From positions 1-22,948 of the forward strand of contig CAYTJV010000045.1 in assembly GCA_964438165.1 (NCBI GenBank): a stretch of 22,948 nucleotides of DNA. Direction: 5' to 3'. This stretch comes from an uncultured Planctomycetaceae bacterium (GTDB taxonomy: Bacteria > Planctomycetota > Planctomycetia > Pirellulales > Thermoguttaceae). Positions 2,570 through 18,943 of the stretch are shown piece by piece. The position numbers were made by a program, and so were the translations under genes. Within the stretch, counting starts at the first letter, position 1. Each line of letters begins with the position of its first letter. Under the pieces are notes generated by a model. It had not been told where the DNA came from. It worked only from the letters and a program-made list of their open reading frames with translations, and did no database searches.

Positions 2570-2938
2570 ATGATAAGGTGGAACGGAGCAGTGGCTAGCC
2601 CTCGTCTGCAGGTCGCCAGGCACGACGACGTTTGGGTGATACGTTTCTTGGACCGGCAGCTCGTCGGAAGCCTACCCGATGAGCTAGGCGGAGAATTGTA
2701 CGCCGTGGCGGCTCAGGAGGATTGCACGAAGCTCCTCTTGAGTTTCTCTGGGGTCGATTTCCTCGCCAGCGACATGCTCGGCAAGGTCGTGGTCCTGAAC
2801 AAGAAGATGAAACAGAAGGGGGGCAAGCTCACGTTGTGCAGACTCTGCCCCTACCTCCGTGAAATCTTGGCGACTACGAAGCTTGACCTGATCCTCGATG
2901 TCAAAGACACCGAAGCCGAAGGTCTCATGGTGTCTTGA
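2570..2938 (+). CDS. STAS-domain protein (anti-sigma-factor antagonist, SpoIIAA/RsbV-like)
   Basis: 122 aa with the STAS pattern: a hydrophobic beta-strand (VWVIRFLDRQLVGSL), …LLLSFSGVDFLASDMLGKVVVLNKKMKQKGGKLTLC, and a C-terminal …ILATTKLDLILDV. No partner RsbW-type kinase is adjacent. Confidence 0.7.
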   Translation: MIRWNGAVASPRLQVARHDDVWVIRFLDRQLVGSLPDELGGELYAVAAQEDCTKLLLSFSGVDFLASDMLGKVVVLNKKMKQKGGKLTLCRLCPYLREILATTKLDLILDVKDTEAEGLMVS

Positions 2939-2954
2939 CAGAGGAGATCGAAAC

Positions 2955-4690: not shown

Positions 4691-6028
4691 TCAGGCTTCG
4701 ACGACCACGAATTCGCAGCCCGCGTCGGTCCAGGTATCGGGCGGCATTCGCTCCAAGGCGAGGCCCGCGCTTCTTAGACGTTCGATGGCCTTGTCGGCGC
4801 GGCCTTGCGGATCCAACAGGGCAAAGGGCCCGACTCCGGCGAACACGTCGAGCGGCTGGAGCGTGAACAGGGCCCGAATCCGCTCGATTCCCGGCGGGCT
4901 CCCGACGACCCACTCCCGGCTCTCGTCCGGTCCGTTCAGCCCCACCGGCGCGCCGGTCCGCAGCCGGTAGTTCTCCAACAGCACGTACACCTGCCCGCTC
5001 GTGCCCAGGTCGAGCAAGGTGAGATAACAGTCGCGGTCGGTCTGGGCGTTGAGCGTGAACCGCTCGCCGATGCGAAACCAATCGCGGCTGGTCCGCGGCA
5101 CGGTGACGATGTCCCGGCTGGTGGGCCGGTTGCTGCGATCGGTCCAAATCCTGCCCGAGAAGGTAGGCCGGGGCTGCGCGACGCGGTTGATGGCGTGGAC
5201 GAGCGCCTCGGGCTGACGCGACGAGTCGACCTGCTTCGCCTTTTGCGTAAAGGCGTCCTGGCGAACCGCCTCAGCGCAGAGTTTGCAGTGCCCCGGCACA
5301 CTCTCGTCCTCGTGTTTGCGGCAGACCGTCTTGCGGCAGCGGGAGCAGGCAAGCCCCTGGTCGGCCGCGACCGGGCGCCCGCACTGGCCGAACCCGCACG
5401 CCGTGCGCTGCTCCGCACCCGCCGGACGCAGGGCAATCGGCTCCCAGCGGCACTCCGGCGCGGAAGCGGCCTCGTTCCCGAGGCCGAAACTCAACAGGTC
5501 CTTCACGTCGCTGCCGTACATCTCCTTGAGCTGCGAGAAATCGAGATGGATTCCGCCTTCGATGCGGACGCCCGCGCCCTGGCGGTGTCCCTCTTCGTCG
5601 ATCCGCACGAAGAAACTGCGGTCCGGGCACTCGAACGCCACGCCCTCTTCGGGCTTGCCGGCGGGGGTGACGACCACCCGCAGCGTCTCGACGGGCAGGT
5701 CGCCCGCGATGCCCGGCCGAAAAGGGAAGCTCAGCACCAATGGCTCGCCCCGCCGGCCCAACCGGCAGTATTGCTCCAGTTCGCTCGGCTCCTGCTCCAC
5801 GTACTTGCCGCGCCCGTGCAGCAGGAGCCGCACGGTCACGTCGCAGTCCGCGTCGGCCACGCGGGTCGCGCGCAGGCGAAGCTGGCACAGGCTGCCCCGC
5901 ACGTGAGGCCGATGCGTCTCCACCTCGAGCACGACCTCCGCCGATGCGCCGAGCGGGCGCCCGCACTCGCTGCAAAACGACGCCCCCGGTTCGGGCACGG
6001 CTCCGCAATGACCGCACGCCAGGTCCAT
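4691..6028 (-). CDS. Zinc-ribbon protein with a DUF4384-like C-terminal domain (last gene of the minus-strand ESCRT-like operon)
   Basis: An AAGGAG ribosome-binding site precedes the ATG. The N-terminus has CxxC…CxxC (MDLACGHCGA…CSECG), with a second Cys cluster mid-protein (CGFGQCG…CSRCRKTVC…HCKLC). The C-terminus (DCYLTLLDLGTSGQVYVLLENYRLRTGAPVGLNG…) resembles DUF4384, which is often fused or adjacent to kinases and caspases. The DUF4384 call is from memory. Confidence 0.6.
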   Translation of the reverse strand: MDLACGHCGAVPEPGASFCSECGRPLGASAEVVLEVETHRPHVRGSLCQLRLRATRVADADCDVTVRLLLHGRGKYVEQEPSELEQYCRLGRRGEPLVLSFPFRPGIAGDLPVETLRVVVTPAGKPEEGVAFECPDRSFFVRIDEEGHRQGAGVRIEGGIHLDFSQLKEMYGSDVKDLLSFGLGNEAASAPECRWEPIALRPAGAEQRTACGFGQCGRPVAADQGLACSRCRKTVCRKHEDESVPGHCKLCAEAVRQDAFTQKAKQVDSSRQPEALVHAINRVAQPRPTFSGRIWTDRSNRPTSRDIVTVPRTSRDWFRIGERFTLNAQTDRDCYLTLLDLGTSGQVYVLLENYRLRTGAPVGLNGPDESREWVVGSPPGIERIRALFTLQPLDVFAGVGPFALLDPQGRADKAIERLRSAGLALERMPPDTWTDAGCEFVVVEA

Positions 6029-6040
6029 TGCGACTCTCCT

Positions 6041-7942
6041 TCACTGGAAGAACCGGTGTCCGCAATTGTCGCAGAACTTCGATCCGCTGGGGATCTGACG
6101 GTGGCAGGTCGGGCAGACGACTTGCGGACCCTGTTGCACAGGGCCGGGGGCGCCGGCCTTCGCGGCCGCCACGTCGGCCAGGCGGTCCATGCTTTGCCCG
6201 GCCATGGCCTGCACATCGCGGGCGTGCTCGCGCTCCTTGGCCGCCGCGGCTCCGGCCACCCGCTCCATCGAGCCCATCGCCTTTTCCATGACCCGCTCCA
6301 GCCGGTCGGCTTCGGATTCCTTGCCGGCGAGGATTTTTTCGTACAGGGCCTTGACCTCGGCGCTTGCCCCGGCCTGGACCTGGGCCTTGGCACGCTCGGC
6401 AATCGCCGCCGCCACCTGCGGCGAGTCCTTGGCCACCAGGGCCAGGATCTGGTCCGGGCTAAGGTCCTTCATCACCTCGGTTTTCTTCAGATCCGCCGCC
6501 AGCCGAGTCTGCTCCGCCTCGGAAAGGGCATGAATCCGCTCCAGCTCCCGCTTCGCCTCACGGTCCTTGGCCTCTTGCTCGCGGGCGATCCGCTGGGACT
6601 CCTCTTCGTGATCCAGCGCGACCTTCTTCTCGCGCAACCGCATACCCAATTCTGCCTTGCGTTCGACGATACGCACGTCGGCCTCGGCCTCGGCGATTCG
6701 CTCGTCGCGGCGGCCCTCGGCAACGCGTCGCTCGTGTTGTACCTTCTCCCAGTCGGCCTCCTGCCGGGCACGGAGATCATCCCGCCCGTACCGGATGCGG
6801 TTCTCCAACTCCGCGTCGGAAAGGGCGTGACGCTGGCGGAGCACGGCCAAGTCGTGCTCCAGATCGAGCTTCTCCAGCATGTGCCTCCGCGCCACATCCG
6901 CGTCTTCCCGCTTCTCGGTGAAGGTGCGCCGCAGTTCCTCCATTTCGTCGGCGCGGACGAGGTCCTTGAGGCCCAGCTCGTGCTCGGTCTGACGCACGAA
7001 ATCTTCGAGCTCCTTCGCCGACGAGAACTGATTCATGCGGTCCGCGGTGAGCGTTTCGCGCAGCCGGCGGTTGAGCGCTGCCCGGCGATCGGCGTCGTCG
7101 GCCCCTGCCTCGGCGAGGCAGGTTTCGCCGCGGCGATCGCGAAGGGCTTCGTAGGATCGGCACGCCACGTGCAACGACCTGAGCGCCACAAGCTCCAGGC
7201 CGCTGCGCCGCAGGGCAGGCTCGATCCGCTGTCGCAGGTCGTTTTCCAGCGCGGCCTTCCACTGTGGATCGGCATTGAGATCGGCAAGCGATGCCTCTTG
7301 GACGCGGGCCCGAACCGTGTCGGCGCACGCGCTGCGCACCAGGTCGGCCACCGCGGCCTTGGGGAGGCTCTCCCGGCCGTGCACCAGGTTGGTGAAAAAG
7401 GAGAGCGGGTCGGCCACGCGCACCACGACCTCGGCCGTCAGGTCGGCAACGACCTCTTCCCGGGTGCGGAGGTCCCGGTACTCAAGCCCCAGCGCGGTGT
7501 CGCCCGCGTCGACGAGGATCGCGCTCGCCGGCGCGGCGAGGTTGAGTCGGGCCGGCAGCCGGGCCAGGTCATAGTTCCCGGCGGAGACCACCGCGGCCAG
7601 CGCGCCGCGTTGAAACACGAGGGCCTGCGTGCCCGGCTCGACCACCAGACGCCGCCGGAACAGCCCGCGAAGGTCGGCGGCTTCGATCCGGCGGGCGAAC
7701 TCGTCGCCGGAGCGACTCCAACGGTTCAGGGCGTCGACCGGCGCCGGCTCGTCGTCGCTGCGGCCCGCGGAAGCGCCGCAATGGCTACACAACTTGGCGT
7801 CGGCCTTCAAGGGCTTACCGCAGGCGGCACACGTGCCCTGGCTGGAGGGAATGGGTCGGCCGCAGTGCGGACAAAAGGCCGCGCCCCAGCGGACCTCCTT
7901 GCCGCAATCGAAATGGGGACACTGGCGGGAGAGAATGCCCAT
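6041..7942 (-). CDS. Flotillin/SPFH (band-7)-like protein with N-terminal and C-terminal zinc ribbons and a long Glu/Arg/Ala-rich coiled coil
   Basis: The start is taken at the internal Met (MGILSRQCPHFDCG…), because the upstream extension is Arg/Trp-rich junk. The N-terminus has three CxxC pairs. An SPFH-like core reads VVEPGTQALVFQRGALAAVV…AILVDAGDTALGLEYRDLRTREEVVADLTAEVVVRVADPLSFFTNLV. A flotillin-like EA-rich coiled coil follows, and the C-terminus has CPTCH…CDNCG. It is a paralogue of the protein at 17005-18933. Confidence 0.6.
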   Translation of the reverse strand: MGILSRQCPHFDCGKEVRWGAAFCPHCGRPIPSSQGTCAACGKPLKADAKLCSHCGASAGRSDDEPAPVDALNRWSRSGDEFARRIEAADLRGLFRRRLVVEPGTQALVFQRGALAAVVSAGNYDLARLPARLNLAAPASAILVDAGDTALGLEYRDLRTREEVVADLTAEVVVRVADPLSFFTNLVHGRESLPKAAVADLVRSACADTVRARVQEASLADLNADPQWKAALENDLRQRIEPALRRSGLELVALRSLHVACRSYEALRDRRGETCLAEAGADDADRRAALNRRLRETLTADRMNQFSSAKELEDFVRQTEHELGLKDLVRADEMEELRRTFTEKREDADVARRHMLEKLDLEHDLAVLRQRHALSDAELENRIRYGRDDLRARQEADWEKVQHERRVAEGRRDERIAEAEADVRIVERKAELGMRLREKKVALDHEEESQRIAREQEAKDREAKRELERIHALSEAEQTRLAADLKKTEVMKDLSPDQILALVAKDSPQVAAAIAERAKAQVQAGASAEVKALYEKILAGKESEADRLERVMEKAMGSMERVAGAAAAKEREHARDVQAMAGQSMDRLADVAAAKAGAPGPVQQGPQVVCPTCHRQIPSGSKFCDNCGHRFFQ

Positions 7943-7994
7943 AGTCTCGTGCCTTTCACTGAGAAACGCTGAAGGACGGCCTGGAAAGGCCGTC

Positions 7995-8837
7995 TTACAC
8001 GATTTCTTCCATCTTGTCGAGCACCACCCAGTTGTATGCCAAGGCCGTGACCGCAGCCGCAACCAGCAGCAGGGCCGCCCAACCACGTTCCAGTTGGAAG
8101 CCCATCATGGCGTATGCGGCCGCGGTCCCCACGAAGGCGAGTCCCAAGAGCAACCCCAAGTTCACCGCGTTCGACTGGCGAGCCAAGGCTCGATGAAGCC
8201 ACGGCGCCAGCGCCAAGGGGAGCAGCAGGACCAGCGCCAGCCACGCCACCAATCGTATCGGCCAGGCGTAACTGGTGACCCTCGCGGCCGCCTGCGATCG
8301 CCCGCGATCGTGTACGACCTCGGCAGTCAGGCTCACCGGTTGTGATGGCTCGCGGGTCTCAACCAAGATCGCCTCCAGGACGGCTTCATCCCGATCGGTT
8401 CGGGCGGCCAGGCTGCGCACGCGGCCGGCCACCAAGTACTCGCTGTCGAGCCGACTGCCGGCCGCCGTGACGGCCGCCTCGAGGGCCAGTTCGTCGTTTT
8501 CGATGCCCAGCTCGCGCTTCACGTTTTCCCAGAGGGATGCCGGACGGACCGCGTATCGACCCGCGCGATCGATCGCCCGGCGCACGGCTTCCGTCACCAC
8601 GCCCGTGGGATCGCTTTCGAACCGGGCCACGACCAACGAGGGCCTTCCCGACGGCGCCGCGGGCAATCGCTCGGCAAGCTGCCGGGCTGCGTCCTCGACC
8701 AGGGCTCGGCGGGCAGGATCGAGCGGCAACGGACGGGAGCGGACCAGCATCCACCCTTGCGCGATCACGACCAGCACCACACCCAGCCGGGCCAACCCCG
8801 TGCCGGCGCGAATCAGTCGGCCGAGCCATCTGAACAT
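7995..8837 (-). CDS. Hypothetical polytopic membrane protein (N-terminal signal-anchor helix, soluble middle domain, about three C-terminal TM helices)
   Basis: The start is taken at MFRWLGRL (GGGAG ribosome-binding site 8 nt upstream). The ORF-track N-terminal extension would overlap the upstream gene. Hydrophobic segments read LARLGVVLVVIAQGW and WPIRLVAWLALVLLLPLALAPWL…LGLLLGLAFVGTAAAYAMMGF…ALLLVAAAVTALAY. Confidence 0.55.
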   Translation of the reverse strand: MFRWLGRLIRAGTGLARLGVVLVVIAQGWMLVRSRPLPLDPARRALVEDAARQLAERLPAAPSGRPSLVVARFESDPTGVVTEAVRRAIDRAGRYAVRPASLWENVKRELGIENDELALEAAVTAAGSRLDSEYLVAGRVRSLAARTDRDEAVLEAILVETREPSQPVSLTAEVVHDRGRSQAAARVTSYAWPIRLVAWLALVLLLPLALAPWLHRALARQSNAVNLGLLLGLAFVGTAAAYAMMGFQLERGWAALLLVAAAVTALAYNWVVLDKMEEIV

Positions 8838-8850
8838 GCTGTATGCTCCC

Positions 8851-9441
8851 CTACGGCTCCCTGCGCATTTCTTCCTCGATCCGCCGCAGCCCGTCGGAGA
8901 TCTGTCCGTCGTCGCCGGAGGCCTCGTCGGCAGCGGCCTCGGTGACCATCTGGTGGGCCAGTTCGCCGAGCTTCCGCTCGTCGAGATCGCGGGCGTCGAA
9001 GAGACTGCCGGCACTGGTTTCCATGGCCACCGAGAGGACTTCTTCGAGGGCCTCCGACTTCTCCACGGCGCGGGCCATTTTGGCCTGCACGTCGGCCACT
9101 TGCTCCGGCGTGGCGCCGCGGAGGATCGAGTTGGTCATCGCCAAAATGCTCTTCAGAAAATCGCCGGTGGCGGCGACCTCGTCGCGGCGCACGCCGAGCG
9201 TCTCCAGTTGCAGCAAGTACCGCTCCCAGCGGCTGACGTGCTCGCGAGCGCGCAGGACCGCCGCGGCCAGTTGCTCGAATTGCTCGCGGTCGCCCAGGCG
9301 GAGGGCCTGCTTGCCCAGTTGCCAGTAGCGCTGCTGCACCTCGCGGGCACTGCGCATGAACCGCTGGATGCGCGTGATCCCCTGGCGGATTTGGATTTTC
9401 GCCTCCAGCTCCCGCTGCTGCCTCGATTTGAACAGTCCCAT
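8851..9441 (-). CDS. ESCRT-III/CHMP/PspA-superfamily-like coiled-coil protein
   Basis: 197 aa from the internal Met. The N-terminus MGLFKSRQQRELEAKIQ… resembles eukaryotic CHMP (MGLFGK…) and PspA (MGIFSRF…) N-termini. The protein is predicted all-helical and charged. The acidic C-terminus ends in an MIM-like stretch, SDGLRRIEEEMRR. The ORF-track upstream extension translates the intergenic hairpin and was rejected. Confidence 0.55.
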   Translation of the reverse strand: MGLFKSRQQRELEAKIQIRQGITRIQRFMRSAREVQQRYWQLGKQALRLGDREQFEQLAAAVLRAREHVSRWERYLLQLETLGVRRDEVAATGDFLKSILAMTNSILRGATPEQVADVQAKMARAVEKSEALEEVLSVAMETSAGSLFDARDLDERKLGELAHQMVTEAAADEASGDDGQISDGLRRIEEEMRREP

Positions 9442-9463
9442 GGTCCGGTCATCTCCGATCCTT

Positions 9464-9524
9464 AGTAGCAGGCACACTCCGTGTGCCGTCCGCCGGCTAC
9501 GGCACACGGAGTGTGCCTACTACT
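9464..9524. promoter_or_regulatory. Nested-palindrome hairpin. The arms AGTAGCAGGCACACTCCGTGTGCCGT / ACGGCACACGGAGTGTGCCTACTACT are separated by 9 nt, and each arm carries a 17-bp self-palindrome GGCACAC-NNN-GTGTGCC. It spans the stop codon of the AAA ATPase and the 5' leader of the ESCRT-III-like gene.
   Basis: Read directly from the sequence. The ORF track shows the mirrored peptide TAHGVCLLL on both strands. Confidence 0.5.
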
Positions 9525-10683
9525 TTGCGCACAACGACTCATACCGCTTCAAGGTCTCCGGCGGCGTATCGGGCCGCAGTTTGGCCAGCGCCGACTCGAA
9601 GTCGTCCCAGCGGAGCGGGCGCGTGGCAAGCTGGTACTTGCTCAGATCGGCGTCGCCGCGGGCGACCCGCTCGACGAGCTTCGGGTTGGCGTCGCCGATC
9701 ATCGTTTCCACGGCCACGGCGGCCAGGTGGGCGAGCTGCCGACCGCTCAGCCCCTCCGACCGCGCCACGAGGCTCTCCAAAGGGAAGCTCAGCGTGTGTC
9801 CCCTCCGCGTCAAATGAATTTCCAGGATTTGCCGTCGAGCAGCAGGATCGGGAAGGGGCACGTAAACGCGGCGTCCGAAACGGCTCAGCGCCGCCGGGTC
9901 CATGAGCCAGGGGGTGTTGGTCGCGCCCAGGGTGAACACGGGCGGGCCGTCTCCGCTGGCAGCGACCCCGCTCAGCTCGGCCAAGAGCGTGGAGAGGACC
10001 TGGCGCTCGGCAGCGCCGGAGGAAAGCTCTCGCGAAGCGAACAGGGCATCGAGCTCGTCGATGAAGACCAGCGAGGGGGCCCGCTGGCGCGCGACCGCGT
10101 AGAGCGTGGCAACCAGCCGGGCCGATTCGCCAAACCACTTGGAGAGCACGGCCGCCGCGCCGACGTTGAAGAACGTGGCGCCCAGCCCGCGGGAAGCGGC
10201 CGCCGCCAGGAGCGACTTGCCCGTCCCCGGCGGACCGAACAACAGGATGTTGCGAATCGGGTCGATCCGCACGCCGGGCGGTTTCTCGGCCACGGCCAGC
10301 CCAAAGGCCAACTGGATCTGCCGCTTCGTCTCCTCCAGGCCGCCGATGTCCTCCCATCCCACCGCGGCCCGCATGATGAGGGCCTCGACCTGGCCTCGGA
10401 GCTCCTGGTCGCCAGACGCGGGTTGTGGGATTGGGCCGGACGGCGGCGCAGGTCGTTGCTCCGAGAGGCGCTGAGCGAGGCTTTCCAGGTTGCGTACACG
10501 GGCCGTTCGCCGCGATCGTTCGGCGGGGCTGACCGCGTACTGGGCATACGCCCGTGCCAGCCCCGCCGCCTCGCGGTAGACGGAGGCGGCTCGTCCCGCC
10601 TCCCCGCCGGCGCGAAGCTCATCGGCCCGCCGGAGGGTCTTGCGAAGCGACTCGTCGATGCTGCGGCTCAAGTCAACGTTCAT
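9520..10683 (-). CDS. Vps4-like AAA+ ATPase (MIT-like N-terminal domain plus a meiotic-clade AAA domain)
   Basis: The start is taken at MNVDLSRS, with GAGAGGAG immediately upstream. The N-terminal ~75 aa form a three-helix MIT-like pattern (SIDESLRKTLRRADELRAGGEAGRAASVYREAAGLARAYAQYA…RSRRTARVRNLESLAQRL) that aligns by eye with the yeast and human Vps4 MIT domain. Walker A is GPPGTGKS and Walker B is LVFIDELD. The meiotic-clade signature ATNTPWLMDPAALSRFGRRVYVPLPD matches the Vps4 stretch ATNIPW.LD.A.RRRFE.RIYIPLPD. The C-terminal helix …DFESALAKLRPDTPPETLKRY is Vps4-like. Confidence 0.75.
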   Translation of the reverse strand: MNVDLSRSIDESLRKTLRRADELRAGGEAGRAASVYREAAGLARAYAQYAVSPAERSRRTARVRNLESLAQRLSEQRPAPPSGPIPQPASGDQELRGQVEALIMRAAVGWEDIGGLEETKRQIQLAFGLAVAEKPPGVRIDPIRNILLFGPPGTGKSLLAAAASRGLGATFFNVGAAAVLSKWFGESARLVATLYAVARQRAPSLVFIDELDALFASRELSSGAAERQVLSTLLAELSGVAASGDGPPVFTLGATNTPWLMDPAALSRFGRRVYVPLPDPAARRQILEIHLTRRGHTLSFPLESLVARSEGLSGRQLAHLAAVAVETMIGDANPKLVERVARGDADLSKYQLATRPLRWDDFESALAKLRPDTPPETLKRYESLCAK

Positions 10684-10694
10684 CGCACTCCTCT

Positions 10695-10773
10695 CGTAGC
10701 TTGGCTCTCCAGAGCCGAGCAAATACGGTCAACATCGCGGAAAAATCGCTCGGCTCTGGAGAGCCAAGCTACG
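10695..10773. promoter_or_regulatory. Nested-palindrome hairpin. The arms CGTAGCTTGGCTCTCCAGAGCCGAGC … GCTCGGCTCTGGAGAGCCAAGCTACG have a ~28-nt loop, and each arm contains the self-palindrome GGCTCT-CC-AGAGCC. It occupies the junction between the Snf7-like stop and the ATPase ribosome-binding site and start.
   Basis: Read directly from the sequence. It has the same two-level palindrome architecture as 9464-9524 and 755-817. Confidence 0.5.
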
Positions 10774-11380
10774 GAGAGAGGACCTTTTCGACGCGCTGGG
10801 CCGCCTCGGCAACGCCCTCCGGCCGGCCGGCTTCTTCGGCGGCGCGGGCGTCTTCCATGGCGGCGACGATGGCTGCCAGGTCGGCATCCGGCTCGGCCTG
10901 CTCCGCGGCCTGCACCGCACCGTCCAGGGAGCCCAGCAGGCTGGTGAACTTCTCCATCTCGAACTGGCCTGCCACGGAGGCCCGCTCGACGTAGGCCGTC
11001 AGCTCCTCGACCGACATTCGAGAGATCACCGAGCCGACTGTGAGCTGCTGCAAGAGCGACATATTCTCCTTGATCTGCAAGAGCCCGTCGACGATCCGCA
11101 GGTGCTTGTGGAAGAACGCGAGCTGCTGGCCTTTGGCGCGGGCGGCGCTATCGAGCTGCTTGATCTTCCGCGCCAGGGCCAGCCGCTGCCGCGAGCTCGG
11201 GTCGTCCTTGCCCTTCATGAATGACTCGTGTTTGCGGGCTTCCAGCTCGTCGGTCTCGCGGCTGACGCGCCGCTCCAACTGCTCCAGGCGGATCTTTTCG
11301 TGCTTCAGCTCGTCGATCGTGAGCCGGTCGATGCCCTTGGGGCTGCCCAGCAAATTCCGCAGACGGTCAAGCAGCAACAT
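10769..11380 (-). CDS. Snf7/ESCRT-III-like coiled-coil protein (first gene of the operon)
   Basis: 203 aa, with a GGAG ribosome-binding site 7 nt before the ATG. The protein is all-helical and charged, with a heptad-like …KIRLEQLERRVSRETDELEARKHESFMKGKDD…RQRLALARKIKQLDSAARAKGQQLAFFHKHLRIVDGLLQI… that resembles Snf7/CHMP4 core helices. The C-terminal tail is acidic. This is weaker than the call for the downstream MGLF protein. Confidence 0.45.
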   Translation of the reverse strand: MLLLDRLRNLLGSPKGIDRLTIDELKHEKIRLEQLERRVSRETDELEARKHESFMKGKDDPSSRQRLALARKIKQLDSAARAKGQQLAFFHKHLRIVDGLLQIKENMSLLQQLTVGSVISRMSVEELTAYVERASVAGQFEMEKFTSLLGSLDGAVQAAEQAEPDADLAAIVAAMEDARAAEEAGRPEGVAEAAQRVEKVLSP

Positions 11381-11400: not shown

Positions 11401-11433
11401 AAACTTCCGAAGTCTTCGAGACTTCGGAAGTTT
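11401..11433. repeat. Copy 2 of the 33-bp palindromic element (AAACTTCCGAAGTCTTCGAGACTTCGGAAGTTT), lying between the kinase stop (11436) and the Snf7-like start (11380)
   Basis: An exact core match to copy 3 and the reverse-complement orientation of copy 1. It is followed by TTTTG on the plus strand. Confidence 0.85.
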
Positions 11434-11435
11434 TG

Positions 11436-13721
11436 TTACCCCTTCTTATACAACACCGTGCCGACGTCTTTCATCGACTCGCAGACGCACAGGCCCTCGG
11501 CCGCGAGGATGCGGCAGACCTGGTCCGCTGCCTTGCGGCTGATCCCCAGTTGCTCCACGAGCGTCGCCAGGGCAATCGAAGCGTGCTCGGCGAAATGCCG
11601 CCCGATCCATTGCCGCGCCCGCTCCAGCACGGCCGCGCTGACGTCGGCAGAGAACGCCTCGCGCCATGCCGCCAGACGCTCATCCGTTTCCGCCCAGCGG
11701 AAACGCGCTCGATCGCGGTCGTAGAGCACGACGCTCACCAGCCGGTCGCGGAAGGGCCGCGGCCCCGCGCCGCTGGCCATCTGGAGGGCCTCGTCCGTCC
11801 ATCCGGTCGGGCTGGCGAGGATGACCAAACGCCACGTTTTTTCGTCGGCCGCCTGGCGCGCGATCCGATTGAGCAACGACTCCAGTTCCGTCGCGGCGAC
11901 CGGCTGATCGTCGTAACCTTCGGCGGCGAAGCGGCCGGCGTGCAGCACGCTTCGGGCCTCGACCACCACGCGGGCCGTGGTTTTCCACAGCCCGCGCTGC
12001 CGCACCTCGTACACCATTCGGTCCCCCGACGGGCCGTGAATTCCCGCACGGCGCGACGCGTCCGACACGGCCCCGGCCGCGCTCGAGTCGTCATCCGCGG
12101 CCCTTCGGGTGCGCCGCTGGGAAAAGTCGCCCACGGAAATCACGGCCTGCCGCACCGGGTCCACCACCTCGGAGACCTCCGCGAGCGCGTTCTCCACGAC
12201 ACGGAAAAACGTCTCCTCGGCCAATTCCGCATCCGCAGCGGAAACGGCGGGCAGGGTGGCGGCCTGCGCGGGGGCTGGCTTCTGCTCGACCACTTCGGCA
12301 GGATCGCGGGGCAAGTCGCGGGCAACCGGCGGCGGGCTGGCCGCTGGCGCCGCATGCGCGCGGCAGCGCCGCACCTTCCCCGCTCGCCAACAGGCAGAGC
12401 ATATCGATGCCCCGCAGACCTCGCAGGTCCCCGCACTGCTGAGCTTTGAGAGCATGGGCTTGCCGCACGCCGCGCAGCGGTCGAACGACGCATTCCCACT
12501 CGGCCGTCCCGCCTCAACGGCGCGAACTCGCTGTTCGGGCACTCCGGGAGTCTGAAGCGGCAGGGTGGCATCGTGTCCGGCCAGGTACGCGTCGATGGCC
12601 TGAATGAAGTCCTCGGCCGTCTGGTACCGCTGCTGACGCTCGCGCGCCATGGCGCGGCGGATCATGTCGCCCAGCCGGCGCGGCACCGCGGGGTTGAGCT
12701 GGCAGGCGTCGGGCGGATCCTCCTCGCGGATCCGCCGGATCACGACGTACGGATCCGATCCCGCAAACGGCACCGCCCCCACGAGCATCTCGAACAGCAT
12801 CGTCCCCACGGAGAACAAGTCGCTCCGGCCGTCGAGGTCGCGCGTCCCGGCAGCCTGCTCAGGCGACATGTAGCTCGGGCTCCCCAGGACGGTTCCCTCC
12901 ATGGTCTGTTGGCAGGCATCGGCCATGCCGCGGGCCAGCCCGAAGTCGGCCAGCTTCGCCGTCCCCGTGGCGTCTTCCAGGATCACGTTGCCCGGCTTGA
13001 CGTCGCGATGGATCACGCCTTGCGCGTGCGCGTGGCCCAGGCCGGCGAGGACCTGGCGACACAGGGCCAGCGCCGCCGGCGGGTCGAGGCGGCCCTCTTC
13101 GGCGATCCGCGAGGCCAGCGAGCGGCCCTCGACGTACTCCATGTCGATATAGGGCATATCGTTCTCGATCCCCACCGAGTGTACCGCCACCACGCTCGGG
13201 TGCTTGAGTTTGGCCGCGGCGCGGGCCTCGCGGAGAAAGCGTTCGCGGGCTTCGGGGTCGTGGAGCCGCGAGGGGGCCATGAGCTTGAGGGCCACGGTCC
13301 GCTGGAGCGTTCGGTCGACGGCCTGGAGCACGACGCCCATCGCCCCCATGCCCACCAGCGCGATCACGTCGTAGGAGCCTAAGCTGGCGATGTACTTCGG
13401 GTCTTGGGGCAAGTCCAACAACAGGCCGCCGGCCACGACAACCCGGTCGCCGCGGACCTCCACGTGCGGAAATCGTGGGAAGTGCGCGGCGCGGATGGCC
13501 TCGAAATCGGCGTCGTGGGCCGGAGCGTCCTGGCCGATCAAGGCGGCCAGCTCGTCGGTCGGCCCCATGGCCTCGTCGAAGCGCTTTCGGCAAAGGGCGC
13601 AGCCGTCGAGGTGTTTCTGCACCTGGGCCTCTTCGTAAGCCCTGGCCAGTCCGGCCGCCACGCGGGTCAGGACGTCGGGTGAGGGGCACTGCGGGGAATG
13701 AGCCGACTGGGGTTCAGACAT
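11436..13721 (-). CDS. Fusion of an anti-sigma factor (ZAS motif) with a Hanks-type Ser/Thr protein kinase, plus a C-terminal zinc-ribbon and unknown domain
   Basis: The start is taken at MSEPQS…, 2 nt after the sigma-factor stop. The N-terminus carries HLDGCALC (an H-x3-C-x2-C zinc anti-sigma motif). Kinase motifs are ALKLM, HRDVKPGNVIL, DFGLAR and SPSYMSPEQ. A later CAACG…CEVCGASICSAC forms a zinc ribbon. The C-terminal ~250 aa are of unknown family. Confidence 0.8.
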   Translation of the reverse strand: MSEPQSAHSPQCPSPDVLTRVAAGLARAYEEAQVQKHLDGCALCRKRFDEAMGPTDELAALIGQDAPAHDADFEAIRAAHFPRFPHVEVRGDRVVVAGGLLLDLPQDPKYIASLGSYDVIALVGMGAMGVVLQAVDRTLQRTVALKLMAPSRLHDPEARERFLREARAAAKLKHPSVVAVHSVGIENDMPYIDMEYVEGRSLASRIAEEGRLDPPAALALCRQVLAGLGHAHAQGVIHRDVKPGNVILEDATGTAKLADFGLARGMADACQQTMEGTVLGSPSYMSPEQAAGTRDLDGRSDLFSVGTMLFEMLVGAVPFAGSDPYVVIRRIREEDPPDACQLNPAVPRRLGDMIRRAMARERQQRYQTAEDFIQAIDAYLAGHDATLPLQTPGVPEQRVRAVEAGRPSGNASFDRCAACGKPMLSKLSSAGTCEVCGASICSACWRAGKVRRCRAHAAPAASPPPVARDLPRDPAEVVEQKPAPAQAATLPAVSAADAELAEETFFRVVENALAEVSEVVDPVRQAVISVGDFSQRRTRRAADDDSSAAGAVSDASRRAGIHGPSGDRMVYEVRQRGLWKTTARVVVEARSVLHAGRFAAEGYDDQPVAATELESLLNRIARQAADEKTWRLVILASPTGWTDEALQMASGAGPRPFRDRLVSVVLYDRDRARFRWAETDERLAAWREAFSADVSAAVLERARQWIGRHFAEHASIALATLVEQLGISRKAADQVCRILAAEGLCVCESMKDVGTVLYKKG

Positions 13722-14301
13722 CGATCTGCTCCACCGCTTCACGGAGCTTGGCCAGCACGCGCGACTTGCCCACGTACACGTTGCCGACGGTCGTCTGCAA
13801 TTGTTCCGCAACCGTTTCCGGCGGGATCCCGTTGAGCACCGAGCGGCGGAAGGCCTCCCACGTGAGCGGCTGCACGGCCGCGCGCACCCGCTTCATGGCG
13901 ATCTCCAACACCCGGCGCCGATGCTCCTCCTCCACCCACGCCTCCACGGCCTGGCCGGAATCGGCAATCCCGGCGACGATCCGAACGTTGTCCGACCCGC
14001 CCGGCGCCGACGGCTTGCGGGCCTGTCCGTGGAAGTGGCGATACGCGCGGTGGCGGGCGACCGTGCTGAGCCAAGCGCGGAACGACTTGCTCGGATCGTA
14101 CTCGAACGGCTTGCGCGCGATGCGGTTCATCACGATCTGCATCACATCCTGCTGCAAGTCGAGGGCGTCCTGGTACGCCACGCCCATCCGCAACAGGACC
14201 CGCAACACCAGCGGCCCATACAACTCCACGAACTCCTGCCAACTCGCCTGGTCGCCGAGATTCCGCACGCGCAACAAGAGACTGGGCCGAGTTCTTTCCA
14301 C
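13714..14301 (-). CDS. ECF (group IV sigma-70) RNA polymerase sigma factor
   Basis: Region 2 and region 4 motifs read …RPSLLLRVRNLGDQASWQEFVELYGPLVLRVLLRMG…DLQQDVMQIVMNRI… and …VLEIAMKRVRAAVQPLTWEAFRRSVLNGIPPETVAEQLQTTVGNVYVGKSRVLAKLRE. The start is proposed at GTG 14301 (VERTRPSLL, with GGAAGG 8 nt upstream). An in-frame ATG at 14463 would add an Arg/Cys/Gly-rich leader and is less likely. The gene is translationally coupled to the kinase gene. Confidence 0.7.
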   Translation of the reverse strand: MERTRPSLLLRVRNLGDQASWQEFVELYGPLVLRVLLRMGVAYQDALDLQQDVMQIVMNRIARKPFEYDPSKSFRAWLSTVARHRAYRHFHGQARKPSAPGGSDNVRIVAGIADSGQAVEAWVEEEHRRRVLEIAMKRVRAAVQPLTWEAFRRSVLNGIPPETVAEQLQTTVGNVYVGKSRVLAKLREAVEQIDV

Positions 14302-14684
14302 CCCGGGCGCCTTCCAGCCGTTCGGGCGAGTTGCTCTCAGAGGCTGCCCGGAAACGGGGCCGGGCCCCCTACATCGTGTGCGAGGTCGAGCCCCGACACA
14401 CAACCGGGAGCCAGTCCCCGTTTCCGAACCGTCTCTCACTTCCTTCCCGCAAAGCGCGATCATTCTAACCGACCCAGACCTGTATTTGCAGGGGGTGCGT
14501 TCACCTGCCGCTTCCGCGTCGGCACGTTCCGAAGAGCCATGCAACGATGACTAGCCCGGGAAGTGAAGAATCTTACACGAAAAACCTGGGAATGGCGTGG
14601 GAGCGGACTGCCCCCAGCGGCCGAGGAGCGGCAAGACAGGGGGGAGGCGAGACGCCGCCAAGCCAGAAGCAAGGAATCGCTCGC

Positions 14685-14987: not shown

Positions 14988-16886
14988 TTACGATTGCAGG
15001 ATCGCGCCCACCGCAATCCCACCGATCGCGCCGGCGACCAGCCCGCCGATCGGGCCTGCCAGCGCGCCGACAGCCAGACCGAGCACCGCGCCGGCAACCG
15101 CGCCGCCCACAACGCCGGCGAACATCGAGACGCGTCGGGCGGTCTGTTCATCCCGCTTCAGCAGGTCGCCGTCGCGCGCCGCAAGATACTCGCCCCGGAG
15201 TGCCCGATCGTCCGGACGAGCCGTAACCAGTTCCCGCAGCGATGGACCGACTGTCGCTCGCGCCTCCGCCGCGTGCGGGCCGTTGGGATAGGAACTCAAG
15301 TAGCTCCGGTAACCCTCTGGGCTCGGGGCCTGGTGGACCGCGTTCCAGGCCAATTCTTGCTGGTGGGCCTCGTGTTTGTCAAGCTGCTGGAGGAGTTTTT
15401 CCACGGAAGGATCGTGGGGAGCCAACTGGCGGAGCCGCTCTGCCTTGGGCCGCAGTCCCTCGTAATTCTTGCTGGCGATCTGGTCCTTGATCTCCTGGCG
15501 CAACTGGGCGATCGCCTGCATCGACGTCTGCGCTTGACCGAGCACATTCTTAGCGCGGTCGAGCAAATCAGCGAGTTCGGGGTTGTGGAAGGCGTAGGGA
15601 ATCTCCTCCAGCAAGTTGACGGCCTCGGCGAACTTTCCCGCCTTCATCCATTCGTTCGCCTGCCGTATGGCCTCGTCGCGTTTCTTCTGCGCGGCGGCGT
15701 ACTCCTGTTGTACGACCGGGAGCTCCATTTCGGCCCATTTGGAAAGCCCGCGCTGGTTAGGGTCCACCGACAAGGTCATGGCGCGCAGGGTGTTGATCGC
15801 CTCCTGATACCGCGACTCGGAACGCAGAGTGGCCACCCGATCGGCAACGGCCTGGGCCTCATCGTCTGCGGCCTTCTTGCTCTGGTCGGGGGCCTCGACC
15901 GCGGGCGCTTGCTTCAACCGCGAATCCAACCCCGCAAGCGCCTGCTCGAATTCCGCGGCGGTCTGATACCGCTTCTCCCGGTCCTTGTGCAGGGCCTTGG
16001 CCAACACGGTCCGCAAGACCTCGGGGACCTCGCTCTCCCGGAAAAAACGCGGATTCTGCCCCGACAGCGCAAACCACAGCGTCCCCCCCATCCCGTAAAT
16101 GTCCGCCCGTTGGTCCACCTTCGACGCATCCACCTCCTGCTCCGGCGCCCCGTACCCAAGCGTCAACAACTGCGCCCCGGCCAGGGTGGCCCCCTCCTGC
16201 TGCGTGTTCACCTGCCGCGCCAGGCCGAAATCCGCCAGCTTCGGCTCCCAGTCCTCGTTGAAAAGGATGTTCGCCGGCTTGATGTCCCGGTGGATCACCC
16301 CACGCTTGTGCGCGTACTTCACCGCGCTGCAGAGCTTGATTCCCAGCCCCACGGTCTTGGCTAGGTCCAGCGCCCCCTTCGCCTTCACCAGCTCGTCCAG
16401 GTCCAGCGGCGGGTTGGGCGCCTCCGCAGGCCAATCGGCGCGCCCACCGGCCTCCGGACCCGCCACGTATTCCATGGCGATGTAGGGCCCCTCCGAGTCC
16501 TCGTCCATCGCGTAGACCTGCACGATGTGGAAGTGGGCTAACGATCCCACCGACTGGGCCTCAGTGTGGAACCGCTGCAAGAGCCGGCTATCCTCGGCGA
16601 ACTGTTCCGACAAGCGCTTCAAGGCCACCCAGCGATTCAGGCGGACATCCTGGGCCAGGTTCACCGTGCCCATCCCGCCCTTGCCGATCAGGTGGACCAC
16701 GCGATACTTGTCGCCGGTGCCGCCGCGCCGCTCGCCCTGGTCACCGGCGGCCGTGCTGCCGACGCCGCCATCGGCGAACGTCGCCCCGTACACGTTTTCC
16801 GGACCCGACGGCGGTTTGGCCGGCCGGGGCTGCGATCCGCTCTGGGGCGATTGTTGGCCGGCGTCGCTGATGGTGCGATCGTCCAT
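14988..16886 (-). CDS. Hanks-type Ser/Thr protein kinase with a C-terminal helical (TPR-like/coiled-coil) region and a glycine-zipper TM tail
   Basis: GGAGG ribosome-binding site. Kinase motifs are GKGGMGTV, VALKRL, HRDIKPANILF, DFGLAR and GYGAPEQ. The C-terminus is …MFAGVVGGAVAGAVLGLAVGALAGPIGGLVAGAIGGIAVGAILQS. Confidence 0.8.
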   Translation of the reverse strand: MDDRTISDAGQQSPQSGSQPRPAKPPSGPENVYGATFADGGVGSTAAGDQGERRGGTGDKYRVVHLIGKGGMGTVNLAQDVRLNRWVALKRLSEQFAEDSRLLQRFHTEAQSVGSLAHFHIVQVYAMDEDSEGPYIAMEYVAGPEAGGRADWPAEAPNPPLDLDELVKAKGALDLAKTVGLGIKLCSAVKYAHKRGVIHRDIKPANILFNEDWEPKLADFGLARQVNTQQEGATLAGAQLLTLGYGAPEQEVDASKVDQRADIYGMGGTLWFALSGQNPRFFRESEVPEVLRTVLAKALHKDREKRYQTAAEFEQALAGLDSRLKQAPAVEAPDQSKKAADDEAQAVADRVATLRSESRYQEAINTLRAMTLSVDPNQRGLSKWAEMELPVVQQEYAAAQKKRDEAIRQANEWMKAGKFAEAVNLLEEIPYAFHNPELADLLDRAKNVLGQAQTSMQAIAQLRQEIKDQIASKNYEGLRPKAERLRQLAPHDPSVEKLLQQLDKHEAHQQELAWNAVHQAPSPEGYRSYLSSYPNGPHAAEARATVGPSLRELVTARPDDRALRGEYLAARDGDLLKRDEQTARRVSMFAGVVGGAVAGAVLGLAVGALAGPIGGLVAGAIGGIAVGAILQS

Positions 16887-16924
16887 GGGGATTCCTCCAC
16901 TGGTTCTGTACTACGAACCTCAAA

Positions 16925-17002
16925 TTCAGGGTTCGGGGTTCGGGGGTCGGGATTCCCGTTCAAGCGTCTCCTCCGAGTCCTGAACCCTGAACCCCGAACC
17001 CT
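16925..17002. promoter_or_regulatory. Imperfect inverted repeat built from tandem G-tract heptamers (AGGGTTCGGGGTTCGGGGGTCGGGATTC … GAGTCCTGAACCCTGAACCCCGAACCCT). It lies between the SPFH-paralogue stop and the kinase start and is a candidate terminator, attenuator or G-quadruplex element.
   Basis: Read directly from the sequence. There are four G-runs of 3-5 on one arm and the complementary C-runs on the other, with an ~18-nt loop. Confidence 0.4.
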
Positions 17003-17004
17003 TT

Positions 17005-18933: not shown

Positions 18934-18943
18934 CGCAAAATCC

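Follow-up and report, generated by a model that had tools for sequence, protein, structure and literature searches.

According to a recent synthesis, a Vps4-like ATPase appears to be absent in bacteria, and PspA systems come without an MIT-AAA partner (PMC7619361). Recent reviews likewise confine the pairing of Snf7 with a Vps4-type ATPase to archaea and eukaryotes, and our literature searches found no paper describing a bacterial Vps4/Snf7 system of the kind reported here. Several known systems come close. In Escherichia coli an AAA+ protein, PspF, is functionally coupled to the ESCRT-III-superfamily protein PspA, but PspF, which lacks an MIT domain, belongs to the sigma-54 enhancer-binding AAA+ proteins and works as a transcription factor under inhibition by PspA, not as a polymer-remodelling enzyme (PMC7619361). 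The Bacillus subtilis pspA-ydjGHI operon (2021, PMC8581546) stands under ECF-sigma control and combines an ESCRT-III-superfamily protein with membrane anchors and a zinc-finger SPFH protein; the anchors and the SPFH protein recruit the ESCRT-III-superfamily protein to the membrane. Ravi et al. 2024 (PMC11237479, Text S2.2) described operons in which a bacterial Vps4-like AAA+ ATPase, predicted to act near the membrane, accompanies a TPR-6TM protein; the hosts include Planctomycetes and Verrucomicrobia, and snf7 has reportedly been displaced by the TPR-6TM gene. The archaeal CdvB/CdvC systems are nearest in their "Main," "Halo_FHA," and "Meth_adaptin" neighbourhoods (Makarova et al. 2024, PMC10936438).

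Here we analysed a planctomycete DNA fragment of 22,948 nucleotides (the window), the minus strand of which carries six open reading frames, G1 to G6, running from 11380 to 4691. The original prediction read these genes as an ESCRT-III/Vps4 membrane-remodelling module, a reading that our analysis supports and whose central part came through the tests set for it beforehand. With starts placed at codons that follow Shine-Dalgarno-like sequences, all six frames lie where they had been predicted. The gaps measure 85 (G1-G2), 78 (G2-G3), 13 (G3-G4), 52 (G4-G5), and 12 nt (G5-G6); of the 2- to 85-nt range given earlier, the maximum is correct, but the smallest gap is 12 nt. The six-gene unit itself is present, but its extent was underestimated, as two more genes, for a Ser/Thr kinase and an ECF sigma factor, belong to it upstream. 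Gene order is conserved, as had been proposed as a check: it is the same in 11 independent related loci, eight of planctomycete type and three from Chloroflexi or unassigned. Because the order recurs in these loci at 23 to 84% identity, the arrangement is not due to chance. All members come from metagenome assemblies, and a contig scan with back-translated patterns, which are narrow, returned 4 loci. Wherever the flanks are present, in the window and in all 11 relatives, G2 sits between G1 and G3, and hhalign confirmed the G1-like and G3-like proteins of the relatives (2e-13 and 4e-26, respectively).

The third gene, G3 (8851..9441, minus strand), encodes a protein of 196 aa that, judged from its sequence, is a member of the Snf7 family and so a true ESCRT-III protein. 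Against Snf7 (PF03357) the window protein reaches 20.7 bits (E=3.6e-4), short of the 27.3 set as gathering score, and the family as a whole gives a stronger signal: 26 of 27 members match, with a best E of 5.2e-10. Precomputed PF03357 matches exist for most G3 homologues, one of which NCBI calls a "Snf7 family protein." When the G3 family profile was compared with helical proteins in the PDB, it matched Vps24, CHMP3, and CHMP1B only; PspA and Vipp1 were not among the matches. The alignment with Vps24 is full length (E 0.001, residues 9-195 against 20-221) and includes the C-terminal helix. G3 resembles CHMP/Vps2/Vps24 proteins in its MGLF N-terminus (MGLFKS, aligned to MGLFGK of CHMP3), in its basic-to-acidic charge split (net +7 in residues 1-60 and -10 in residues 121-196), and in its C-terminal amphipathic helix. 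The MIM1 consensus is (D/E)xxLxxRLxxL(K/R), and the conserved helix of G3, D..RI..GL..IEEEMRKEL, resembles it. PspA_IM30 (PF04012) has no match at E<=1 in either the G3 or the G1 family, and membership of PspA was rejected for both. The family is of modest size but real: 357 clusters at 50% identity represent the Snf7-like protein, and a search with the ATPase gave 487 proteins at E<=1e-40.

G2 (9520..10683, minus strand, 387 aa) is the ATPase. Its N-terminus, residues 1-76 (10456..10683, minus strand), is a three-helix bundle with an MIT fold: in a structural search against 48,164 chains, the four top matches were all MIT domains, among them archaeal Vps4 bound to ESCRT-III. The AAA core (9853..10248, minus strand; PF00004 E=1e-31) is a single classical cassette with intact Walker A (GPPGTGKS) and Walker B (FIDELD) motifs, an SK[WY]xGE-type aromatic pore loop (SKWFGES in the window, SKYFGES in the family consensus), and the SRH motif RFGRRVYVPLPDPAAR. 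We judged its clade affinity from per-domain scores together with motifs. By these measures its best AAA match appears to be Vps4, at 163.8 bits against 139.7 for Cdc48 D2 and 125.4 for Cdc48 D1, and Vps4 is also the first single-cassette protein in the PDB ranking. The core is 42% identical to that of yeast Vps4 (a reference sequence whose coordinates agree with the PDB match) and has SKW.GES..LV and RF.RR.Y.PLPD.AAR in common with it. The analysis supports the MIT + AAA Vps4-like architecture predicted for this protein. NCBIfam scores lie close together (CDC48, 161.6; PAN, 158.2; CdvC, 149.4), and G2 is not a CdvC orthologue, since its 149.4 bits compare with an equivalog cut-off of 650 for NF041006; that model aligns G2 residues 23-384 to profile positions 21-364 of 370. 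The Vps4_C helix scores 17.7 bits in the window protein, below the gathering score of 21.3, and across the family 22 of 38 proteins match it (best E 8.7e-8).

Compared with eukaryotic Vps4, then, G2 has the MIT bundle, the KW.GE-type pore loop 1, the RF.RR.Y.PLPD second region of homology, and the Vps4_C helix. It differs in that it is, at 387 aa, too short to have room for the Vta1-binding beta-domain, and in that only one arginine of RRR is retained, with an RFGR spacing like that of Cdc48 D1. Neither Vta1 nor ESCRT-0/I/II nor a link to ubiquitin is present at the locus. G2 may belong to the ATPase family of Ravi et al. 2024; the TPR-6TM operons differ from the window in that here a true Snf7 is kept beside the ATPase.

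G1 (10769..11380, minus strand, 203 aa) is all-helical. A short helix at its N-terminus precedes a long hairpin (22-58 and 63-121) and four short helices; the C-terminus is acidic, and the motif DLxAIVAAMExARAAEEAG is invariant. Its top Foldseek matches come mostly from the ESCRT-III superfamily, but none is significant, and its sequence finds only noise in the PDB. It is not a detectable paralogue of G3, as hhalign shows no similarity between them. As its helices are laid out like those of ESCRT-III but its sequence gives no signal, G1 is only probably an ESCRT-III protein. Of the two small proteins predicted to be ESCRT-III-like, G3 is the real Snf7, and G1, which had been called Snf7-like, gives no Snf7 signal.

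Both gaps that flank G2 contain the structured hairpins described earlier. One lies between G1 and G2 (10695..10773; 26-nt perfect arms; -47.6 kcal/mol, z -6.3) and the other between G2 and G3 (9464..9524; -53.5 kcal/mol, z -8.5); the arms of both are 26 nt and perfect or near-perfect. Between G1 and the upstream kinase gene lies a 33-nt perfect palindrome (11401..11433), which the window contains three times in identical form. The hairpins are not specific to the operon, since other parts of the window have similar palindromes, including one within a coding region. The G1-G2 hairpin was not found in the closest relative, L011, or in L001; the G2-G3 hairpin is kept in L011 with one compensatory change and is absent in L001. 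The inner stem and T-run of the G1-G2 hairpin make a terminator-like match, but a role as terminators was rejected, as such matches show no enrichment over chance (8 against 5.9±2.2 expected). Regulatory RNAs were rejected as well, given that Rfam reports no family in the window and that conservation ends at the closest relative. We treat the hairpins as lineage-specific, REP-like palindromes.

The remaining three genes encode a membrane protein and two zinc-ribbon proteins. G4 (7995..8837, minus strand, 280 aa) is the only membrane-integral product of the six, with four TM segments predicted by hydropathy, one N-terminal and three C-terminal; homologues occupy the same position in five relatives (L001, L003, L008, L009, and L011). 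G5 (6041..7942, minus strand, 633 aa) is a zinc-ribbon SPFH protein, in which two N-terminal zinc ribbons precede the SPFH/Band_7 domain and a long, charged helical stretch separates this domain from a third zinc ribbon at the C-terminus (Zn_Ribbon_1, 4e-16; DZR, 6e-12; Band_7, 2.6e-9; Band_7_1, 1.3e-5). Both SPFH-type matches exceed their curated cut-offs (Band_7, 37.8 bits versus 23.6; Band_7_1, 25.4 versus 24), and G5 is present in L001-L006, L009, and L012. G6 (4691..6028, minus strand, 445 aa) begins with a zinc ribbon, is rich in Cys in its middle part, and ends in a DUF4384 domain (2e-9); its position is kept in L001-L004 and L011. Pfam bore out the domain assignments of G2 (AAA and a weak Vps4_C), G3 (Snf7), G5, and G6. 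Zinc ribbons occur on many unrelated proteins of the locus.

Upstream of G1 lie the two regulators. The ECF-type sigma factor (13714..14310, minus strand; Sigma70_r2 E=3e-12; 5′ end approximate) also heads the cluster in L001-L004 and L009, at 45 to 51% identity, and its stop overlaps the start of the Ser/Thr kinase STK1 by 8 nt. STK1 (11436..13721, minus strand; Pkinase E=5e-45) keeps its position in L001-L004, L009, and L011. Beyond the kinase domain it has a Cys-rich zinc finger, then a conserved domain of ~250 aa and, at the C-terminus, a weak winged-helix signal. Stand-alone HTH_17 proteins encoded immediately upstream of the G1-like gene in L005, L006, and L013 are homologues of the C-terminal half of STK1.

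In nearly all relatives a second MIT-AAA ATPase (AAA2) follows G3; the window and its closest relative, L011, have lost it. The ancestral design consists of two dyads, G1-G2 and G3-AAA2, in each of which a small helical protein precedes an MIT-AAA ATPase. Much of this can be found in archaeal ESCRT loci (PMC10936438), which also place an ESCRT-III gene directly upstream of the MIT-AAA ATPase and also contain Ser/Thr kinases, phosphatases, FHA domains, an SPFH protein with a coiled coil and zinc ribbon, and, upstream, a gene whose product has a winged-helix-type domain. Propeller proteins (PQQ/WD40) are shared by archaeal ESCRT loci and some relatives of the window locus. The differences are that the hosts here are bacteria (Planctomycetota and Chloroflexi), that in the ancestral bacterial locus two distinct MIT-AAA paralogues each follow a small helical protein of their own, that G1 is without sequence similarity to Snf7, and that the bacterial locus adds ECF sigma factor, DUF4384, and FGE-sulfatase partners. 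CdvA, ESCRT-I/II, and adaptin-appendage proteins were not detected at the locus. The SPFH and zinc-ribbon partners had been thought to have no ESCRT precedent; pspA-ydjGHI and the archaeal Meth_adaptin loci provide it.

The likeness to pspA-ydjGHI raises the possibility of a Psp-like envelope-stress module, in which a coat of G3 and G1 would stabilise damaged membrane and the ATPase would do no more than recycle or regulate it, with no vesicles or scission. An ECF sigma factor heads the cluster, G5 also matches Band_7_1, and the set of TM anchor, zinc-finger SPFH protein, and ESCRT-III-superfamily protein mirrors that operon. But the B. subtilis protein is a PspA (PF04012) where G3 is a Snf7, and the operon has neither an ATPase nor a kinase/FHA layer; PspA systems in general are without an MIT-AAA partner (PMC7619361), whereas two dedicated MIT-AAA ATPases in the ancestral locus suggest active polymer turnover. 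We consider a purely Psp-like module unlikely, although it overlaps with a remodelling machine and does not exclude one.

Farther upstream in the window, Pfam searches identify a kinase with a C-terminal TM segment (14988-16886), a zinc-ribbon SPFH-like protein (17005-18933), a zinc-ribbon FHA protein (18944-20770), and a caspase-FGE-sulfatase fusion (20767-22623; PADLOC caspase, 7e-18), all on the minus strand. These genes (14988..22623) have themes in common with the locus but no synteny in relatives, in which the zinc-ribbon-FGE and FHA-kinase genes are found on the other side, downstream of G6. Effector-like neighbours in the relatives include Peptidase_U49/Lit, an M48 peptidase, SNase, a papain-like peptidase, VWA, and a Tle1-like lipase, and a diversity-generating retroelement adjoins kinase-FGE genes. 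Such variable enzyme genes (nuclease, peptidases, and lipase) suggest roles beyond plain membrane repair.

The locus could on these grounds be a conflict system, anti-phage or inter-bacterial, or a cargo-export system, its ESCRT-III/Vps4 core delivering, packaging, or unleashing variable effectors. FGE-sulfatase, PQQ, or WD40 domains would serve in sensing, kinase/FHA proteins in signalling, and N-terminal zinc ribbons as docking tags. The variable effector-like neighbours, including the caspase-FGE gene of the window, the retroelement, and the zinc ribbons common to so many unrelated proteins would fit. Against this, the core is conserved and the effector-like genes are not, and archaeal ESCRT loci with the same kinase, FHA, and propeller themes have been read as cargo sorting (PMC10936438). 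PADLOC models match none of G1, G3, G4, and G6, and G2 matches only as a generic AAA protein (IetA, TRIP13), so we rejected a known anti-phage system; a conflict or export function in the wider sense seems improbable, somewhat more so than the Psp-like module. Least credible is the reading of G2 as a Cdc48-like unfoldase of a generic kind whose N-domain is TPR-like, by which G1 and G3 would be unrelated coiled-coil adaptors and the ESCRT resemblance superficial, since the four best N-domain matches are MIT domains, Vps4 outscores both Cdc48 domains, Vps4_C is found in the G2 family, and 26 of 27 G3 homologues match Snf7, with a family profile that finds only ESCRT-III among helical PDB entries.

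We favour, as the likely identity of this locus, a bacterial membrane-remodelling machine of the ESCRT-III/Vps4 type that is connected to ECF-sigma and Ser/Thr-kinase signalling. In such a machine G3, probably with G1, would polymerise on the cytoplasmic face of the cytoplasmic membrane through its basic N-terminal hairpin and MGLF N-terminus, at sites that the zinc-ribbon SPFH scaffold G5 and the four-TM anchor G4 may organise by recruitment to the membrane. G2 would use its MIT domain to bind the acidic helices exposed at the C-termini of G3 and G1, and the AAA ring would pull subunits through its SKWFGES pore loops, leading to turnover or constriction of the polymer. Because AAA2 has been lost in this lineage, G2 presumably serves both substrates. 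We infer that phosphorylation and the sigma factor control the process. Its outcome could be membrane repair or scission directed away from the cytoplasm; candidate cellular roles are repair, vesicle or cargo sorting, and defence.

A broader proposal, which we put forward only tentatively and hold to be rather less probable than its opposite, is that some bacteria (Planctomycetota, Chloroflexi, and others) have a full ESCRT-like machine for sorting and scission, regulated by phosphorylation, with two ESCRT-III/Vps4 dyads, an SPFH platform, and zinc-ribbon-tagged clients, which has common ancestry with archaeal ESCRT or was acquired by ancient inter-domain transfer. If so, ATP-driven remodelling of ESCRT-III would not be an archaeal/eukaryotic innovation. 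Recent syntheses leave open how the bacterial relatives of ESCRT-III are disassembled, and a conserved bacterial locus with a true Snf7 and MIT-AAA ATPases supplies a concrete counter-example, one open to expression and testing. The locus bears on the origin of Vps4, on a possible pre-archaeal association of ESCRT, SPFH proteins, and kinases, and on membrane remodelling in PVC bacteria, to whose unusual membrane dynamics an ESCRT-like machine may, if the proposal is true, contribute.

The six minus-strand genes of the locus, whose start codons were taken as those preceded by Shine-Dalgarno-like sequences, are G1 (11380..10769, 203 aa), G2 (10683..9520, 387 aa), G3 (9441..8851, 196 aa), G4 (8837..7995, 280 aa), G5 (7942..6041, 633 aa) and G6 (6028..4691, 445 aa). 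The window is high in G+C (about 0.58-0.71). From G1 to G6 the intergenic gaps measure 85, 78, 13, 52 and 12 nt; the layout is as originally predicted, apart from the shortest gap, which is 12 nt rather than 2. The conserved unit exceeds the six genes: an ECF-type sigma factor (13714..14310) and a Ser/Thr kinase, STK1 (11436..13721), lie directly upstream on the same strand, with the kinase start overlapping the sigma stop by 8 nt. On the plus strand, two ORFs at 686-2371 (561 aa) and 2898-4688 (596 aa) each have one N-terminal TM-like segment and returned zero Pfam matches; the latter is convergent with the end of G6. At 22-555 there is a partial sequence similar to DNA polymerase III delta.

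G3 belongs to the Snf7 family of ESCRT-III proteins. On its own, the protein from the window hits Pfam Snf7 at E 3.6e-4, which is sub-threshold. Searching 5.8 billion proteins produced a family of 65 members, and Snf7 was matched by 26 of the 27 that were aligned (best E 5e-10), PspA_IM30 by none of them. Among 1.84 billion cluster representatives, 357 relatives were found at E<=1e-3. Against the PDB, the family profile retrieved Vps24 (full length, E 0.001), CHMP3 and CHMP1B, with just two weak non-ESCRT matches ranked below these. The MGLFKS N-terminus of G3 aligns with MGLFGK of CHMP3, and net charge is +7 in the first 60 residues and -10 in the last 76. At the C-terminal end the family has a conserved amphipathic helix, D.RI..GL..IEEEMRKEL, resembling the MIM1 motif.

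Two ESCRT-III-like small proteins had been predicted. This held for G3, whose family matches Snf7 and not PspA_IM30; the assignment of G1 is less certain. G1 had no Pfam, NCBIfam or PDB sequence match, and profile similarity between G1 and G3 was not found. Its AlphaFold2 model (mean pLDDT 76; >90 in the hairpin) consists of a short helix at the N-terminus, then a long hairpin (22-58, 63-121) and four shorter helices, the predicted layout being that of ESCRT-III. The top 50 Foldseek matches are mostly CHMP1B, Vipp1, PspA, CHMP2A-CHMP3, Snf7, Asgard ESCRT-IIIB and CdvB2; the alignments are full-length, yet all E-values are >=0.2. The middle of G1 is basic and its C-terminus acidic, with a near-invariant C-terminal motif, DLxAIVAAMExARAAEEAG.

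The proposal that G2 is a Vps4-type AAA ATPase with an MIT domain is supported. Residues 1-76 form a three-helix bundle in an AlphaFold2 model built with 33 homologues (pLDDT 92.6). In sequence-profile searches this domain was matched weakly, over its whole length, by MIT domains from chitin synthase, VPS4B and MITD1, and MIT is the Pfam family matched by the most N-domain members (7/33). The AAA cassette has intact Walker motifs. When all PDB sequences are ranked, no single-cassette protein comes before yeast Vps4 (163.8 bits, one domain); Cdc48/p97 entries rank above it because their totals sum two domains, which singly score 139.7 and 125.4 bits. By BLASTP, G2 and yeast Vps4 are 42% identical over 234 residues (with Vps4 coordinates that match those of the PDB search) and share the motifs SKW.GES..LV and RF.RR.Y.PLPD.AAR. 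Vps4_C is sub-threshold in the window protein, yet 22 of 38 family members match it (best E 9e-8). We also considered a CdvC orthologue. The NCBIfam CdvC model covers residues 23-384 at 149 bits, a score far under what its equivalog cut-off requires; the models for CDC48 and PAN give G2 about as many bits. For these reasons G2 is filed as Vps4-like rather than as a CdvC orthologue.

Gene order is conserved among related loci. Eight planctomycete-type relatives (Pirellulaceae, Thermoguttaceae, 'Planctomycetes SM23_32' and metagenomes) have the order sigma, kinase, G1, G2, G3, AAA2, G4, SPFH, DUF4384 and zinc-ribbon-FGE-sulfatase, followed by a PP2C phosphatase or Lit-type peptidase and then an FHA-kinase. 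All locus members derive from metagenome assemblies. In loci from Chloroflexi (Anaerolineales) and unassigned lineages, the core of HTH_17, G1-like, G2-like ATPase, G3-like and AAA2 is kept and the accessory genes differ from planctomycete-type ones; a zinc-ribbon SPFH protein is present in two of three (L005, L006). Their G1-like and G3-like proteins were identified by hhalign (2e-13 and 4e-26), and local HMM searches agree.

AAA2, a second MIT-AAA ATPase of about 365-380 aa with an RPGRFD-type SRH, lies between G3 and G4 in nearly all relatives (L001 11766-12863; L003 11770-12879; L005 9860-11005; L013 12784-13902). Its alignment to yeast Vps4 starts at the MIT domain and runs on from there (33% over 339 residues), the CdvC model is matched along its entire length, and the Vps4_C hit is strong in L013. 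All relatives have AAA2 except L006 and L011, the latter the closest relative of the window, and it is also cleanly missing from the window, where the G3-G4 gap (8838-8850) is 13 nt. In L012, a G3-like gene is directly 5' of an AAA2-like gene, and three small genes, none detected by the G1 profile, precede the G2-like gene. Because of these pairings, the design suggests two dyads, each of a small protein and an ATPase.

Variable enzyme genes adjoin the core: a zinc-ribbon Peptidase_U49 (Lit-like; L003 18039-19133), Peptidase_M48 (L005 11022-12077), SNase and Peptidase_C1 (L013 11882-12781 and 16509-17444) and a T6SS Tle1-like lipase (L012 16866-18017). In Chloroflexi-type L006 (146-5631), a diversity-generating retroelement (RVT_1 + bAvd) lies beside a pair of kinase-FGE-sulfatase genes, shortly before the HTH_17/G1-like/G2-like core.

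TM-like segments and Pfam matches agree with the domain calls predicted for the remaining genes. G4, the sole membrane protein among the six, has four TM-like segments. In G5, two N-terminal zinc ribbons precede SPFH/Band_7 (+ Band_7_1) and a long, charged helical stretch, and a further zinc ribbon is C-terminal; G6 combines a zinc ribbon with a Cys-rich stretch and DUF4384. N-terminal zinc ribbons are found on window proteins at 4691-6028, 6041-7942, 17005-18933 and 18944-20770, at L001 17286-18776 and at L003 18039-19133; the carriers are otherwise unrelated (SPFH, DUF4384, SPFH-like, FHA, FGE-sulfatase, Lit-like peptidase). This recurrence on unrelated locus proteins suggests a common docking module. 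In the C-terminal half of STK1 (11436-12611), a zinc finger is followed by a conserved domain some 250 aa long, and there are weak winged-helix matches. This half is homologous to stand-alone HTH_17 proteins (L005 6008-7219, L013 8116-9306), which take the equivalent place ahead of the G1-like gene in other phyla, Chloroflexi among them. By analogy, this region may parallel the winged-helix genes upstream of archaeal ESCRT-III.

The two long gaps (85 and 78 nt) hold near-perfect 26-nt inverted repeats, and folding confirmed the predicted hairpins: -47.6 kcal/mol (z -6.3) for G1-G2 and -53.5 kcal/mol (z -8.5) for G2-G3. The G2-G3 hairpin is kept in L011 only, with one compensatory change; in comparison with L011 and L001, the G1-G2 hairpin occurs in the window alone, and L001 is without either. 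The hairpins are outside the locus's conserved design. An Rfam scan of the window found no family, and terminator-like matches there are at chance level. The left arm of the G1-G2 palindrome (10748-10769) can form an alternative 9-bp hairpin followed by GATTTTT right after the G1 stop, a possible attenuator lowering ATPase expression relative to G1, of a kind whose matches occur at chance frequency. A 33-nt perfect palindrome, AAACTTCCGAAGTCT-nnn-AGACTTCGGAAGTTT, has three copies (589-621, 11401-11433, 21738-21770), the third in frame within a caspase-FGE-sulfatase ORF, where it reads ..PQTSEVSKTSEVY.. in the linker of two domains; it is apparently a REP-like element that the coding sequence tolerates. 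Beyond the six genes there are two more long inverted repeats (751-819 and 16925-17002), one with 27-nt perfect arms and the other with 28-nt arms that are 86% complementary. Structured palindromes thus characterise the non-coding DNA of this genome in general.

The SPFH and zinc-ribbon partners had been thought to lack ESCRT precedent. This is incorrect, because archaeal ESCRT loci and B. subtilis pspA-ydjGHI have such partners. Like our locus, archaeal ones have ESCRT-III upstream of Vps4, kinases, phosphatases, FHA domains and an upstream winged-helix gene, and the Meth_adaptin type has SPFH with a coiled coil and zinc ribbon (PMC10936438). Similarly, pspA-ydjGHI is under ECF sigma control, and its membrane proteins and zinc-finger SPFH protein bring PspA to the membrane (PMC8581546). 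According to a 2025 review, bacteria appear to lack a Vps4-like ATPase (PMC7619361). Ravi et al. 2024 (PMC11237479) describe transfer of Vps4-like ATPases to several bacterial phyla, including Planctomycetes, a TPR-6TM gene that displaces snf7 in bacterial Vps4-like operons, and AAA+ ATPases loosely associated with bacterial Snf7 and PspA. Automatic annotation calls some members 'Snf7 family protein' or 'SpoVK/Ycf46/Vps4 family'; our literature search found no paper describing the locus.

An ESCRT-III/Vps4-type machine is the best-supported reading. G3, and probably G1, would polymerise at the cytoplasmic face of the membrane on a platform of the SPFH protein G5 and the 4-TM protein G4; the MIT domain of G2 would dock onto acidic C-terminal helices, and the AAA ring would extract subunits. 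The sigma factor and kinase may regulate the system. Conservatively, its role would be membrane repair under envelope stress. We leave room for vesicle cargo sorting or a conflict system, given that nuclease, peptidase, lipase, caspase and FGE genes vary between the loci and that N-terminal zinc ribbons recur on unrelated proteins. The locus is real and conserved and, on computational evidence, a new bacterial form of the ESCRT-III/Vps4 kind.
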